DNA of 64,000 nucleotides from Dehalococcoidia bacterium (GCA_965197585.1 OZ240215.1:2560001-2624000); one strand, 5' to 3'. Shown: positions 1 to 4,875, numbered from the stretch's first letter. The notes: generated by a model not told the origin, from the letters alone. Numbers and translations are program-made.

Positions 1-314
1 GTCCCTCCCGTCGGGCCCATCACCCCTGTCGCCGAGACCGCCAGGTCCGACCCGATTAGCCGCCGAGCCCCTTTGGCCATCTCCCGCGCAGTCACCTCCG
101 ACACCGACCCCTCACGAATCATCACTTCTTTGGGAATGCCCAGTACGTTCTCTTTGATATCGTTGGCATACGCCAAAACGCCCCCAACAAAGAACCTCGA
201 ACTCCCCGGCACGCTGGTCAGCCTGGCCGCTATCAACCCCGAGGTACATGCCTCCGCCACGGACACCGTAAGTCCCCGCTCCTTCAGAATTCCCGCAACT
301 TCCTCTTCGATCAA
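1..314 (-). CDS. pncC: CinA C-terminal domain / nicotinamide mononucleotide deamidase PncC family protein (3' end outside window)
   Basis: Not in the ORF track. Manual translation from TTG at 314 (RBS GGGGGAG) gives ..LTVSVAEACTSGLIAARLTSVPGSSRFFVGGVLAYANDIKENVLG..GSVSEVTAREMAKGA..LAVSATGVMGP, matching the CinA/PncC motifs AESCTGG, PGSS, Y.N..K and S.TG.AGP. Confidence 0.85.
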   Translation of the reverse strand, partial: MIEEEVAGILKERGLTVSVAEACTSGLIAARLTSVPGSSRFFVGGVLAYANDIKENVLGIPKEVMIREGSVSEVTAREMAKGARRLIGSDLAVSATGVMGPTGG

Positions 315-418
315 ATCTCCCCCTTCAATGCCTGTTTCCTATTACCCCCAATTATAGCCCCCAAACCTCCCCCTTCCCCTTTCCGGCACCCCGTCCCGGA
401 GCCGTAATCGACCCCCAC

Positions 419-1030
419 CTAAGACCCCACCCCCACGCTGATATCTGTAGGCGTACCGCTATTCGTCGCATTCTGGTCCTGCGGACACGCCGACACACAC
501 ACCCAGCAGTCCATCTCTACCCTGAGCAGCACGTAGTCCCCCGCCTTAGTCTCCGGCGCCGCGATGTCCATCCTGCCGTCTATAAACACGCGGAAGTTGG
601 TGAACAGGTTAACGGGCTGCGGTATCTCCACTCCTGGCACCCCGATGGCCTCCATACTCTTCTGAAGGTTCTCCTCACAGCTGGCATGCCACCCCTCCAC
701 CCCCAACTCCCGGTACCTGCTGGGATTGCACGACGCGTATAGCAAGTCGTGAATTCCGGGGCTATGGTCCTCGACAAGCGTGAGGATAGGTCGGCGCTCC
801 TGGGTATAGAACGCATCACCTTCCTTCGGAAACAGCCTGGAAATGGAAGGCCTCGTATGCTCGGCGCTCAGGTACTCCTTTACGTTCTCCACGTTGAAGG
901 CAAACAGGTCCACGGCCTGCCCGCCATGCAGATCTATCACCTTAACCAGCTCCCCCTTACTTACCCGAAACGCCTTCCCTTCCCGAGCCGGTACATGGTA
1001 GTCCAACCGCTTCTGCGTTAGCTCCGTCAT
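419..1030 (-). CDS. Urea carboxylase-associated family protein (DUF1989)
   Basis: Motifs G.QAVDL, HDLLYASC, HASCEENL, P.NLF.N and SACPQD. Start MTELT has a GGAGG RBS. Confidence 0.85.
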   Translation of the reverse strand: MTELTQKRLDYHVPAREGKAFRVSKGELVKVIDLHGGQAVDLFAFNVENVKEYLSAEHTRPSISRLFPKEGDAFYTQERRPILTLVEDHSPGIHDLLYASCNPSRYRELGVEGWHASCEENLQKSMEAIGVPGVEIPQPVNLFTNFRVFIDGRMDIAAPETKAGDYVLLRVEMDCWVCVSACPQDQNATNSGTPTDISVGVGS

Positions 1031-1046
1031 ATGCAAACCTCCGTTT

Positions 1047-1142
1047 TTGACACAATTGTCCAACGCGCTTTATATTTCCCTTACCACCCCAGCGGTAGCA
1101 CCTCTGGGCCGACGTCCCCCCATGTGGGGGGCGTTTCTTTTT
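1047..1142 (+). ncRNA. Putative small RNA cassette, copy 1 (TTGACA-18nt-TATATT promoter, two hairpins, U-tract terminator)
   Basis: TTGACA 1047-1052, TATATT 1071-1076, hairpin cccag..ctggg, then GC hairpin gacgtcccccc..ggggggcgtt plus tcttttt. A homologous copy lies 850 nt downstream. Confidence 0.6.
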
Positions 1143-1225
1143 ACCCTTCCAAGACCTCACACTGATACCGGACCCGAATGCTTGTTGCTCAGTGCGGCAG
1201 GCGGTTACTGGTTTCTCCAAACTCT

Positions 1226-1849
1226 TTAGGCCCACTCCATCGGCCTCTCTAACACATATCCGTCGGCCTTGATGACCTTGCTAGGTAGCTGGTTGCCCCT
1301 TAGCACATTTCGGCCTATTGGCAAGTGTGCGGTTGCAGCCTTTCGGAGATTAGCCGAATGTCGGCCTGGCGGGAAAGCAACGACGACGCGTTTCTCGGGA
1401 TAGCGTGCCCGAACTTTACGCACCAGACCAGACATATCACCATCTGCGGATACGATAAGAGCCGTGTCAAACCTATTTGTTTGAGCATCGTCGAGCAGTT
1501 CGACAGCAATATTGACATCAGTCATTTTCTCTTCATAGGTTTGCCGATTCACTCCACAACTCGTGCAGTACTGGTCTTTGACCATGTAATACCCATAGTG
1601 GATTTGTAGGTCCGGAAGAGTCGCCAAGGCCTCCCAATAGGTAGTCTGTCGCTTCGGTTTACTCGGGTTGCCCGGCTCGGCAAAAACTCTTGCGGTGAAG
1701 TATCGTACTATCACTAGATGTTGTCCGGGCTTCATGAGGTTCTCGGACATTCGCCTGAGATCAAGCCAGTAATACCGCTTCCATCTCTTGGCTCTGAGAC
1801 CATAGTACAGGTTGAATCCATCTACATAGACAGCTACCCTTTCTGCCAA
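1226..1849 (-). CDS. NYN domain (LabA/DUF88, PIN-like) putative ribonuclease
   Basis: Motifs VYVDGFNLY, EKMTDVNIA and IVSADGDM carry the NYN acidic catalytic residues. TTG start at 1849 preferred; the ORF track extends to 1912. Confidence 0.9.
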   Translation of the reverse strand: MAERVAVYVDGFNLYYGLRAKRWKRYYWLDLRRMSENLMKPGQHLVIVRYFTARVFAEPGNPSKPKRQTTYWEALATLPDLQIHYGYYMVKDQYCTSCGVNRQTYEEKMTDVNIAVELLDDAQTNRFDTALIVSADGDMSGLVRKVRARYPEKRVVVAFPPGRHSANLRKAATAHLPIGRNVLRGNQLPSKVIKADGYVLERPMEWA

Positions 1850-1896
1850 AATTCTACCTTTAACATGATGTAAAGTTGCTTGTTCCACCCGTGCTC

Positions 1897-1992
1897 TTGA
1901 CACAATTATCACATGTGCAGTACATTTGCCTTACCACCCCAGCACTAGCACTGCTGGGCCGACGTCCCCAAATATGGGGACGTCTCTTTTTT
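1897..1992 (+). ncRNA. Putative small RNA cassette, copy 2, divergent from the NYN gene
   Basis: TTGACA 1897-1902, TACATT 1921-1926, hairpin cccagca..tgctggg, then perfect 10-bp hairpin gacgtcccca-aata-tggggacgtc plus tctttttt. Confidence 0.65.
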
Positions 1993-2146
1993 GCCCCCAA
2001 GCTCTCCCATCGGCATCTACTCTATCACTACGGTCTAGTCTATCCGAATCCCCGTTCTCACCCCTCACCCCCTCACCCATCCCGATAACCTCACCAACAC
2101 TTTTCAGACATCCTTTCCTACCTACCTAGCATCCCACTCTTAACTG

Positions 2147-2174
2147 TGTCATCCCGAGGCCCCGCGAGGGATCT
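2147..2174. repeat. REP-like dispersed palindromic repeat (family A)
   Basis: tgtcatcccgaggccccgcgagggatct, nearly identical to 25847-25874. Confidence 0.6.
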
Positions 2175-2718
2175 AGGACTTGCCCAACCACCCCCCGTAC
2201 GACCACTCCCTCGTGGTTAACCTCCCCACTCCCCACGCATCAAAGAAACACCAAATGTGACACCATCCCCTTGACTCCATCAGACCATACGTACTAACTT
2301 ACTCTCGATTCCCGTCTGCACAGCCGACTCCCCACCGCCGTCATCATTACCTCTTCTTTTCGAACGGTTTTCCCTCCGACCCAACAACCCCATACATCTA
2401 ATCCTGAAGGACCTTGCCCAATTCATAAGCTCCAGCCGCCATTTCGCCCCCCTCTCCCCTGGGAATTTCTCCATTTACGACAAATGAATCAAAGTCTCTC
2501 CGACAAGCAGACAATCAGAATTCGTGCCTGCTGCCCGCAAACAATCAAACACAAAGCTGATTCCTTTGATTGCCCCCGCAAGCTTTGATAGTAGTATGTC
2601 AACTTGCCCCTCACCCCCCATCCGCGTAAACTACCTCCGGATCGCTTATATAACATTACTTGATACGTGCAATAACAGATTGCATGAGTCCACGGCTCGG
2701 CCTGGACCCCTCAGGAGA

Positions 2719-2952
2719 ATGGACACAGGAGAAGACATCGCCATAGCCGACCATTGGGACGCCGGTCACATGGGCTGCGGTGAGGTAATCATCATGCTCA
2801 GGATGCGGTTTCAACCCCTCGCTCCTGGCCAGGTCTTCAAACTCACCACCCAGGACCTGGGCGCCCACGAAGACATCCCCGCCTGGTGCCGGCTCACGAG
2901 TCGGCGCCTCCTCAAAGCCGACCACCCCCACTACTGGATCGAGCAGAAATAG
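2719..2952 (+). CDS. TusA/SirA-like sulfur carrier protein
   Basis: 77 aa with WDAGHMGCGE..L.PG.V......D.GA.EDIPAWC, a TusA fold with CG in place of CP. Confidence 0.8.
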   Translation: MDTGEDIAIADHWDAGHMGCGEVIIMLRMRFQPLAPGQVFKLTTQDLGAHEDIPAWCRLTSRRLLKADHPHYWIEQK

Positions 2953-2970
2953 ACCCTGGAAGGAGTCAAC

Positions 2971-3333
2971 ATGTCCGGAAAGTTCTGCGTCAGCCTCACC
3001 CATGCCAAGGACAACACCGACAAAGCTACCGTGGCCTTCGTCATAGCCAACGCTGCCCTCGGTTCGGAGAAGGAGACCATGGTCTTCCTCAGCACCGAGG
3101 GAGTTCGTGTTGCCGAGAAGGGTTATGCCGACGACATCAACGAGGAAGGGTTCATGCCTCTCAAGGATCTGATGGACAGCTTCGCCGCATTCGGTGGTGA
3201 TATCTACGTCTGTGCACCGTGTTTCAAGAAGCGTGGCCTCGACGAGAACAACCTCGTTGACGGGGCCACGATAGTCGGTGGCGCAAAGCTCGTAGAGTTC
3301 CTCTCCGACAACAGCCCTGCCGTCTCCTACTGA
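2971..3333 (+). CDS. DsrE/DsrF-like family protein
   Basis: Motifs FLSTEGV and IYVCAPCFKKRG...L..G; strong GGAG RBS. Confidence 0.85.
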   Translation: MSGKFCVSLTHAKDNTDKATVAFVIANAALGSEKETMVFLSTEGVRVAEKGYADDINEEGFMPLKDLMDSFAAFGGDIYVCAPCFKKRGLDENNLVDGATIVGGAKLVEFLSDNSPAVSY

Positions 3334-3354
3334 CCTCCCGCACCCGAGCCACTA

Positions 3355-4875
3355 ATGGACCCCATCGAACGTCACGTATACCAGCCCGACGCCAGCTTCG
3401 ACGGCGGTGACCTCGATTGCGGCGGCGGCCTCCTTCTGCTCATCCGCCGTCACATCGACCCTATGGAGCGCGGCGGCCTCCTCGAAATCCTCTCCACCGA
3501 CTCCACAGTCGAAGTCGAGCTTCCCGCCTGGTGCCGCATGACCAGCAACGAGATGGTCTCCTGGACCAAGGGGAACGGGCAACGCAGCTTCCTGGTCTGC
3601 AAGGGTCCTTTGGAAGAGCACCCAGCCACGGTCACCCTCCCACCTCCCGCCTCCATAGGCGAACAGCTGCGCGTGAAGATCACAATCCCCGACTCCCTCC
3701 CCCCGCCCTCCCCCGCCCCCAGTATCGCACCGCTGTCCGTCATGGGCATCGGGAGCTGGCCCCGGCCCCGCTGGATGCTCCAGGCAGTCCACGACAGGCT
3801 CGAAGGCCGCCTCAATGACGACGACTTCCAGGCCACCGCTGACGACGCCGCCCGACTCTCCATCGACGCCCAACTTCGCGCCGGTGTCGACGTGGTCACC
3901 GACGGCGAGCAGCGCCGCGACAACTATGCCAGCTTCGTAGGCGGCCTCCTCGACAACTGCCAGCTCATCCCTCTCACCGACCTCACCGCCATGGTCGACG
4001 ACCCCGAGAAGTTCGAGAAGGACCTGCGCGCCCTTGACGTGCCCGCCGGCGAGGTGCGACACCCTGTCGTCTACGGCAAGCTCGGCAGAAGCAGTCCCCT
4101 CGCCGTCCACGAGCTTGAATTCGCCGCCAAATGCACCGACAGGCCCATCAAGGTCGCCCTCCCCGGCCCCTACCTACTCATCCGTACCATGTGGCTTGAC
4201 TGTCTTACCGACCTCCCCTACGAGACCCGTGAAGACCTAGCCCGAGACGTCGTACGAGTCCTCCGCGAAGAGCTCCACTTCCTCCTCGCCTCCGGCGCAG
4301 CCCTAGTCCAGTTCGACGAACCCGTCCTCACCGAGGTCGTATTCGGCGCCCCAAGCGGCAACCGCACTTTCATGTGCGGGGCCCTCAGCGAAAAGCTGGC
4401 CCCTGCCGCAGAGCTTGATTTCGCCGCAGGCCTCCTTAACGACGTCGTCACCGGCCTCCCACCCGACCGCCTCGGCCTCCATATCTGCCGCGGCAACTGG
4501 ACCCGAGACGAGTCCGCCGCACTCTCCGGCGACTACCGCCCCCTCCTCGACCTCCTCAACAGGGTCAAGGTTGGGACCCTACTCCTGGAGCTCTCAACCC
4601 CCCGTGCCGGTGAAGCTGCAGTCTTGCGTTCTCTCCCCGAGGACAAGCGCATAGCCATCGGTGTCGTCAATCAGAAGCTCGACGCCGTAGAACGTCCCGA
4701 GGACATCCGCCGGAGCATAGACCTCGGCATCGACCTCTTCGGAAGGGAGCGCCTTATCCTCACCCCCGACTGCGGCTTCGCCACATTCGCCGACAACCCC
4801 GTCGCCTCCGCCACCACCGCCGAGGCCAAGCTCCGGGCCATAGCCCAGGCCCGGGAACTGGTTCCGGCGTCATGA
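3355..4875 (+). CDS. Fusion of an N-terminal TusA-like domain and a cobalamin-independent methionine synthase II (MetE C-terminal-like) Zn domain
   Basis: N-terminal FDGGDLDCGGG..ELPAWC, Pro-rich linker, then IGSWPRP, DGEQRR, QFDEP, HICRGN, LELS and PDCGF (Zn ligands H, C, E, C). Confidence 0.85.
   Translation: MDPIERHVYQPDASFDGGDLDCGGGLLLLIRRHIDPMERGGLLEILSTDSTVEVELPAWCRMTSNEMVSWTKGNGQRSFLVCKGPLEEHPATVTLPPPASIGEQLRVKITIPDSLPPPSPAPSIAPLSVMGIGSWPRPRWMLQAVHDRLEGRLNDDDFQATADDAARLSIDAQLRAGVDVVTDGEQRRDNYASFVGGLLDNCQLIPLTDLTAMVDDPEKFEKDLRALDVPAGEVRHPVVYGKLGRSSPLAVHELEFAAKCTDRPIKVALPGPYLLIRTMWLDCLTDLPYETREDLARDVVRVLREELHFLLASGAALVQFDEPVLTEVVFGAPSGNRTFMCGALSEKLAPAAELDFAAGLLNDVVTGLPPDRLGLHICRGNWTRDESAALSGDYRPLLDLLNRVKVGTLLLELSTPRAGEAAVLRSLPEDKRIAIGVVNQKLDAVERPEDIRRSIDLGIDLFGRERLILTPDCGFATFADNPVASATTAEAKLRAIAQARELVPAS

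Follow-up and report, generated by a model that had tools for sequence, protein, structure and literature searches.

Two copies of a conserved structured RNA bracket a predicted NYN ribonuclease gene in a Dehalococcoidia genome: a candidate RNA antitoxin module

The stretch of DNA analyzed here (the window) comprises 64,000 nucleotides (nt) from the genome of a Dehalococcoidia bacterium (GCA_965197585.1 OZ240215.1:2560001-2624000). Near its left end lies a gene for a predicted NYN-type ribonuclease, bracketed by two copies of a small RNA (sRNA) gene. The NYN gene occupies positions 1226..1849 of the minus strand and is of the HEC-09 type; it encodes 207 amino acids when read from the TTG at 1849, and its frame is open up to a GTG at 1912. 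Both sRNA genes are on the plus strand. Copy 1 is downstream of NYN and convergent with it, and has its promoter at 1047..1076 (-35 box TTGACA at 1047-1052, 18-nt spacer, -10 box TATATT at 1071-1076) followed by an RNA of about 60 nt at 1083..1142, which consists of a 5' tail ACCACC, hairpin 1 (1088-1108), a CC linker, hairpin 2 (1111-1135) and a U-tract. Copy 2 takes the place that is canonical in the family, upstream of NYN and in divergent orientation, and has its promoter at 1897..1926 (TTGACA at 1897-1902, 18-nt spacer, TACATT at 1921-1926) and an RNA of about 60 nt and the same architecture at 1933..1992 (hairpin 1 at 1938-1958, hairpin 2 at 1961-1984). Only 48 nt separate the copy 2 promoter from the NYN start codon, and neither sRNA copy overlaps the NYN coding sequence in the window.

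An initial annotation of this DNA had described two homologous elements of about 96 nt, 850 nt apart and flanking NYN, each with a promoter, two hairpins and a U-tract. That description was borne out. The elements (1047-1142 and 1897-1992, plus strand) have a mean column identity of 82% across the 131 columns of their pairwise alignment, and the TTGACA boxes at 1047 and 1897 are exactly 850 nt apart. The promoters score 11/12 (copy 1) and 10/12 (copy 2) and are the only promoter-like sites that the consensus scan found in positions 1-3000, and the same scan places a terminator-like hairpin followed by a T-run on the plus strand at 1111-1135 and at 1961-1984. About 7 nt past the -10 box comes ACCACCCCAG, and then hairpin 1, a CC-GACG junction, the GC-rich hairpin 2 and the T-run; the 5' tail of the RNA reads ACCNCCCC. 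Fold energies are -29.4 and -30.9 kcal/mol, with z-scores of -2.8 and -5.9, for copies 1 and 2, respectively. The two copies differ in the promoter spacer and in the loops of both hairpins, as first noted, and additionally in the upper stem of hairpin 1. Copy 1 shows G-U on the plus strand at pairs that are G-C or U-A in copy 2, again as the initial annotation had it. A covariance model built from seven RNA copies (R1) scores them at 88.2 and 91.8 bits.

The element could have been a genome-wide repeat with no relation to NYN, a reading that would have gone against the initial proposal. This was ruled out by a BLAST search of the whole 3.43-Mb genome, which returned only these two copies above chance. 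The Rfam search that had been proposed as a check gave no match at the RNA among the Rfam 15 families, with E-values up to 10 considered in positions 1-3000. One match to CRISPR-DR8, at 2808-2844, scores 24 bits where the gathering score is 39; it falls inside the frame of a TusA-like gene and was taken as chance.

The protein is predicted to be an NYN-type metal-dependent RNase that keeps its catalytic acidic residues. It matches Pfam NYN (PF01936) with an E-value of 4.2e-17 and 63.4 bits against a cut-off of 24.2, and residues D10, D111, D136, D138, N13, E107 and K108 show no variation or are conserved to at least 99% in both sets of homologues, of 87 and of 30. The AF2 model has a pLDDT of 93.1, and its top Foldseek matches are the NYN-like structure 2qip (E-value 7e-10) and the MARF1 NYN structures 5yaa and 6fdl. 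The initial annotation did not recognize the module as a named family. This needs amending for its protein half, which belongs to PADLOC HEC-09: residues 3-206 align with positions 2-202 of the 203 in model PDLC04163 (E-value 1.5e-84). HEC-09 has been introduced, in the accessible part of its source, as a single NYN gene embedded in Hma systems that resembles the NYN domain of MARF1 and has three conserved aspartates in common with it (Payne et al., bioRxiv 10.1101/2024.01.29.577857).

To see how far the RNA extends, an exact motif derived from it was scanned against one genome per species in 185,579 species. The motif matched 112 stretches, 80 of which were taken with their flanks; two overlapping ones were dropped, and R1 found the RNA in 68 of the remaining 78. 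The other ten (Streptomyces, Cyanobium, Myxococcales and others) are probably chance matches to the pattern. The 68 RNA loci are mainly from Dehalococcoidia and also from Latescibacterota, Actinomycetota, Planctomycetota and one Thermus plasmid. Across 88 aligned RNA matches, 95.2% of the cells are standard pairs and 13 of 19 pairs show compensatory changes. None of five covariation measures was reached by any of 500 shuffles, and sliding the register lowers pairing to 40-53%. Helix 2 of the same alignment contains about 92 G-U cells and no more than 6 non-pairs. Since these G-U cells would be A-C mismatches on the opposite strand, selection acts on the plus-strand transcript, and the earlier suggestion of RNA-level selection on that strand is upheld by covariation together with this strong G-U bias.

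Conservation is not limited to the stems. The -35 box, a spacer of 17-18 nt, a TAnnnT -10 box and the T-run are kept in 40 aligned divergent modules, as are the start ACC[A/C]CCCCAG and the junction CTGG[G/C]CCGACG. Conservation across phyla extends to the single-stranded 5' tail ACC[A/C]CCCC and to the CCGACG junction, and variation in the RNA is confined to paired, covarying stems and to loops, with no variable guide-like segment. The element is a conserved structured RNA, encoded on the strand opposite NYN, with promoter-like and terminator-like signals of its own.

The RNA of the window's clade, on the strand opposite NYN and detected by R1, is called type A below, and that of a sister clade, detected by a second model (R2), type B. 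The initial annotation had proposed a covariance search beside homologous NYN genes, and the type A loci provide it: tblastn found an NYN homologue (44-68% identity) in the 3-kb flanks of 57 of the 68, within 600 nt in 55 of them. All 76 RNA copies in those loci are on the strand opposite NYN. The RNA is solely upstream and divergent in 41 of the 55 adjacent loci, mostly with 46-96 nt between the NYN start and the model start; this is the commonest layout, that of copy 2 and NYN in the window, and it agrees with the divergent sRNA-NYN module originally proposed. In eight loci the RNA is solely downstream and convergent, and in six it flanks NYN on both sides, as in the window and in sister species G003, so that 49 of the 55 have RNA on one side only. 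RNA genes per NYN range from one to four, and 14 of the 68 loci are multi-copy. One of these, L062, carries four type A RNA genes at a spacing of about 105 nt downstream of NYN (2992-3377).

The same association appears when the search begins from the protein. The HEC-09 model found three genes above 250 bits in 151 Dehalococcoidia genomes, and all three have a divergent RNA upstream. Among ten metagenome loci found by NYN protein, the RNA is present in 5/5 with at least 50% identity. The coupling of element and NYN that the initial annotation had postulated is thus seen in both search directions. The complete module also occurs in a cultured organism, Thermus oshimai JL-2, whose plasmid pTHEOS01 encodes, around 205.8-206.6 kb, an NYN of 53% identity (324 bits with the HEC-09 model) with an opposite-strand RNA next to a helicase-related gene. 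No NYN relatives were found in the viral contig collection that was searched. An early reading of the RNA as independent of NYN, taken from the NYN-less genomes G001, G059 and G011, was overturned by the tblastn search of the pattern-selected loci; these three RNA-only cases are orphans.

In a quick maximum-likelihood tree of 87 NYNs (IQ-TREE), the 60 type A NYNs form one group (approximate likelihood ratio test, 93), inside which the downstream layout arose at least three times. Because the NYNs with opposite-strand RNA form one group, their uniform orientation is explicable by one ancestral inversion. A single inversion cannot, however, account for the persistence of the pair in Chloroflexota, Latescibacterota, Actinomycetota, Planctomycetota and Deinococcota. 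RNA and NYN almost certainly constitute a functional unit. The neighbors of the relatives' modules vary, with many metabolic genes and also transposases among them. Defense-type neighbors include HmaA (L068), HmaC (L078) and a Dsr2-like protein (L085), and GmrSD, an N6 methylase, Abi_C and HicB were found as well.

The direct repeats that bracket NYN in the window and in six loci could alternatively be ends or recombination sites of a mobile NYN cassette, acting at DNA level and resembling an RNA gene only incidentally. Sister species G001 has the order CinA-DUF1989-RNA-TusA-DsrE at the same site, with a single RNA and no NYN; in a metagenome contig from a related strain, 1137 is followed directly by 1988, so that exactly 850 nt are missing; and the contexts in which the module is found are highly variable. 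All this would suit a cassette. Nevertheless, homologous recombination between two functional RNA genes explains presence and absence equally well, the G-U bias of helix 2 marks selection on a single transcribed strand, promoter hexamers and U-tract are both conserved, and 49 of 55 loci have no second repeat across the gene. In addition, neither the gene calls nor the Pfam matches of the window include an integrase or transposase beside the module. A DNA cassette is therefore very improbable.

Comparison with G003 also bears on the age of the two copies. Identity to this sister species is 96.7% for RNA copy 1 and 93.3% for copy 2, but 78.5% for the NYN coding sequence and 68-83% for the spacers. 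Being better conserved than the coding sequence and the spacers, both RNA copies are old and maintained. The initial annotation had taken copy 1 for a relic or a second antitoxin; it is not a relic, being intact and in a position that recurs in the eight convergent and six bracketed loci.

A related arrangement was found in a sister clade of NYN genes. With the HEC-09 model many further NYN genes reach 100-166 bits, and these have a related RNA directly upstream on the same strand. This type B RNA consists of a TTGAC promoter, a C-rich start, a hairpin (often with GCUUCGGC at its top), a GG[C/U]GCGAGG junction, a second hairpin that ends 10-56 nt ahead of the NYN start, and a weaker U-run. Its alignment shows compensatory changes in 14 of 16 pairs, and R2 matches 57 of the 151 Dehalococcoidia genomes. 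Type B RNA was detected within 600 nt of 27 of 31 sister-clade NYNs, upstream on the same strand in 25 and downstream in two, and three of the four misses show a diverged RNA by eye or as a weak match. Among the shorter LabA-like NYNs (59-100 bits) just 9 of 45 have an RNA. Types A and B follow a common plan with a CCC...GGG-N-CGA junction, and each model weakly detects the other type. Rfam 15 gave no match to type B in 19 loci (E-values up to 0.1) or in four further loci (E-values up to 1). Metagenome NYNs of 35% identity and an NYN on a Leptospira plasmid have yet another same-strand version of the RNA.

The genome studied here contains, outside the window, three type B RNAs (G000:C1:2923627-2923693 on the minus strand, 492650-492717 and 610268-610335 on the plus strand), each by an NYN paralogue; two precede their NYN by 21-27 nt on the same strand, and the third, on the opposite strand, is 232 nt upstream of a shorter NYN of 170 amino acids. 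Other occurrences depart from this pattern. Two tandem type B RNAs precede a DUF3800 gene with no NYN at L195 1061-1273 (G100:C1:1078460-1078672), and given this case the same kind of RNA may serve more than one protein family. Orphan type B RNAs were also seen directly upstream of housekeeping genes on the same strand (L197, L199, L202 and L203, from G007, G059, G066 and G084); the genes behind them are for a glucose/sorbosone dehydrogenase, for Na/H exchangers (two species of the same genus) and for PRPP synthetase. These orphans may be leftovers of lost NYN genes or the sign of an NYN-independent role. L194 (G143:C1:414556-415857) carries four type B copies and no recognized NYN. Finally, small mobilizable ColE1-type plasmids of E. 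coli (L217) and Klebsiella (L219) carry HEC-09-like NYN genes that score 164 and 104 bits, have 28-32% identity and are paired with a helix-turn-helix gene in divergent orientation. Two hairpins precede the E. coli plasmid NYN, the second being a clear terminator, and 400 plasmid records have such HEC-09-like NYN genes, 207 of them from Klebsiella.

The partners are not equally dependent on each other. An NYN of the HEC-09 superfamily without the RNA is almost never seen, and the reverse is common. NYN is missing from 11 of the 68 type A loci and from the vicinity of 28 of the 71 RNA matches in the 151-genome sample. Orphan RNAs are found at sites where relatives have both partners, next to an aminotransferase (L088, L105 and L119), a CoA-transferase (L102) or a binding protein (L064). 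In 8 of 57 loci NYN is apparently truncated or interrupted while the RNA is intact. This asymmetry fits an RNA antitoxin, most likely one of a type III-like kind. It is the opposite of what would be expected if the RNA were a positive partner of NYN, such as a cofactor, scaffold, natural substrate or sensor, with the pair forming a ribonucleoprotein enzyme. Strict co-inheritance, a conserved tail and junction, single-stranded and potentially recognized by a protein, and the type B RNA pair ahead of a DUF3800 gene would all be compatible with such a role. We nonetheless consider a positive role quite unlikely, as the RNA often stands without NYN or by a disrupted one and has no variable guide-like segment.

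We therefore favor, with a probability of about 0.5 and from genome comparison, an explanation in which an RNA antitoxin holds the NYN RNase in check. The module would consist of two parts, a self-transcribed two-hairpin RNA of about 60 nt and an NYN RNase of the HEC-09 family. The RNA would be kept in excess by its near-consensus promoter and, in the window, by two RNA genes to one NYN gene, and it would restrain the nuclease, most likely by binding the protein directly as in type III toxin-antitoxin or abortive infection systems. Failure of the RNA supply, for instance through phage transcription shut-off or loss of the element, would free NYN, which would then degrade cellular or phage RNA. 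That the RNA acts negatively on NYN by whatever route seems probable. The narrower proposal of direct inhibition by RNA-protein contact, drawn by analogy, would have near-even odds at most, and AbiF/RCd22 provides a precedent for an RNA antitoxin of this kind (bioRxiv 10.1101/2025.04.15.648962, in its accessible part).

Several observations argue for action on the protein. For the 14 nt at the 5' end of the RNA, pairing with the NYN 5' region does not exceed that with shuffled sequence and has no fixed site (mean z +0.27, n=38). This lack of a pairing signal, together with the flip in orientation between the clades, argues that the RNA acts in trans and that its target is the protein and not the mRNA. 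Action on the protein is likewise favored because RNA sequence and shape are kept on either strand and upstream or downstream of NYN, because the single-stranded tail and the junction are conserved across phyla, and because the layout would yield excess RNA, be it through a near-consensus promoter, through one to four RNA genes or through a terminator-like hairpin before NYN.

A serious rival is that the RNA sets the amount of NYN and not the activity of the protein. On the same strand it could do so by leader attenuation, and in the window by promoter occlusion, convergent transcription or cis-antisense action on a long untranslated region (UTR), in the manner of type I systems. The geometry lends itself to this: the terminator-like hairpin of type B, 10-56 nt before the NYN start, leaves no space for a second promoter, the type A NYN starts only about 20-45 nt from the -35 box of the RNA, in seven convergent loci, including one bracketed locus, 14-25 nt separate the RNA 3' end from the NYN stop, every one of the 76 copies has an antisense orientation, and some type B RNAs lie ahead of unrelated genes as a general leader would. 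However, the RNA architecture survives inversion and placement on either side of the gene, where a cis leader could not work, and a purely cis-antisense role requires no primary sequence conservation across phyla. The searches found neither a conserved pairing site in the NYN 5' region nor a conserved position of an NYN promoter. The consensus scan gave no minus-strand promoter in positions 1-3000; reading the sequence by eye suggests a possible extended -10 for NYN, TGTGATAAT, at 1909..1917 (minus strand) within the copy 2 promoter spacer. A -10-like hexamer stands on the NYN strand beside the -35 box of the RNA in 13 of 27 modules, and 8 have none. We judge control at the level of expression unlikely, and the roles of positive cofactor and DNA cassette less likely still.

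Other points weigh against an antitoxin. As the NYN promoter was not located, the RNA may overlap in antisense a long 5' or 3' UTR of NYN. The type B RNAs that precede housekeeping or DUF3800 genes fit a general leader or a broader range of partners. Some of the broken NYN genes may be artefacts of frameshift errors in metagenome-assembled genomes. The uniform orientation may have been inherited from one ancestor, in which case 76/76 does not represent 76 independent events. The HEC-09 representative protected against no phage tested, and the candidates named as apparently toxic in the accessible part of the same work are HEC-03 and HEC-04 only (bioRxiv 10.1101/2024.01.29.577857). The HEC-09 constructs described there held about 150 bp of upstream sequence, which may or may not include an RNA gene, and the words "ncRNA" and "non-coding" are absent from the main text on HEC-09 (bioRxiv 10.1101/2024.01.29.577857).

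To the left of the module in the window are a DUF1989 gene (419-1030, minus strand) and then CinA. To the right, about 530 nt without genes are followed by TusA, DsrE and a TusA-MetE-like gene. G+C content is about 0.45-0.53 over the NYN gene as against 0.55-0.61 leftward (positions 1-1300), and 0.62-0.71 from about 2700 rightwards; it is low, about 0.49, in noncoding DNA at 2400-2700 too. The geneless interval between sRNA copy 2 and the TusA-like gene (1993-2523) has no convincing open frame and is very C-rich on the plus strand, with a GC skew of about -0.5. It contains, at 2147-2192 (within 2120-2220), a GC-rich repeat of about 45 nt with hairpin potential and the core tcccgaggccccgcgaggga, which has 42 matches in its own genome and is present at the equivalent place in G003. 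Its summed depth in four metagenome runs far exceeds that of its surroundings, reaching thousands in three of them. It is probably a dispersed repeat of the lineage, similar to repetitive extragenic palindromic elements. Positions 2524-4875 form a sulfur-carrier cluster conserved in G001, made up of the TusA-like gene, DsrE and a fusion protein of 506 amino acids with a TusA-like N-terminus and a cobalamin-independent methionine-synthase-like domain.

A module of free-standing RNA genes and an NYN nuclease looks undescribed, and literature searches, with subscription journals and preprint supplements outside their reach, turned up no paper in which NYN or HEC-09 has an RNA partner. The RNA, of which there are at least two related forms, is widespread in Dehalococcoidia and present in several other phyla. 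If the antitoxin explanation is true, NYN nucleases join the few protein folds that are paired with RNA antitoxins. Going further, HEC-09-type NYNs, and possibly DUF3800 proteins, may be the protein halves of an undescribed, phylum-spanning class of RNA-gated toxin or defense systems, in which the RNA binds and silences the nuclease until its supply fails; we put this forward tentatively, at slightly less than even odds. HEC-09 was proposed as a one-gene defense candidate and gave no phenotype in the only test found. Should it need the RNA, or be restrained by it, constructs and screens using the lone gene may miss its activity. The full module on pTHEOS01 of the cultured T. oshimai JL-2 makes the idea directly testable.

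Type III systems such as ToxIN, CptIN and TenpIN consist of a small structured RNA beside an endoribonuclease gene, with the RNA in excess. In ToxIN-like systems the antitoxin is a short tandem-repeat array processed by the toxin and encoded upstream on the toxin strand, with a terminator in between. The NYN module resembles them in having a small RNA gene beside a predicted nuclease and in the mobile or defense contexts of its relatives, and the sister clade repeats the ToxIN-like order of promoter, RNA, terminator-like hairpin and nuclease on one strand. It differs in the nuclease, which has an NYN/PIN-like and not a ToxN/AbiQ fold, and in the RNA, which is not a short-repeat array but comes as complete genes, each copy having a promoter and a terminator to itself. 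In the window, moreover, the RNA genes are on the opposite strand, 850 nt apart, and inhibition by binding is something that we infer.

In type I toxin-antitoxin systems the antitoxin is a cis-encoded antisense RNA and the toxin a small membrane peptide. An RNA gene on the opposite strand at the 5' or 3' end of the toxin gene is common to both. In the NYN module, by contrast, the RNA does not overlap the coding region, no conserved pairing site was detected, the candidate toxin is a nuclease of 207 amino acids, and a related clade has its RNA on the same strand.

DUF3800 genes are known for many associated RNA motifs. The DUF3800-I, drum and skipping-rope motifs, as presented in the accessible part of their description (Weinberg et al., 2017; PMC5737381), are comparable to the NYN RNAs, which by structure, terminator, orientation and side are protein-associated, terminated small RNAs of the same kind; one type B RNA pair even precedes a DUF3800 gene. 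They differ in that the partner is NYN, and no Rfam 15 family, including those of these motifs held there, matches the NYN RNAs.

AbiF-RCd22 of Clostridioides difficile is a case in which a toxin other than ToxN is neutralized in cis and in trans by a neighboring non-coding RNA through direct contact, according to the accessible part of its report (bioRxiv 10.1101/2025.04.15.648962). It indicates that motif-type RNAs beside toxin genes can be antitoxins. Its protein family (Abi_2) and its RNA are different ones, the AbiF RNA is upstream on the same strand, and the module of the window is known from sequence alone. HEC-09 is matched by the window NYN over its full length, and relatives of the module are found beside HmaA and HmaC. 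The window gene lies between DUF1989 and TusA/DsrE, however, and is not embedded in an Hma system. Moreover, where HEC-09 is described in the accessible text as a single NYN gene (bioRxiv 10.1101/2024.01.29.577857), the unit seen here is an RNA together with an NYN.

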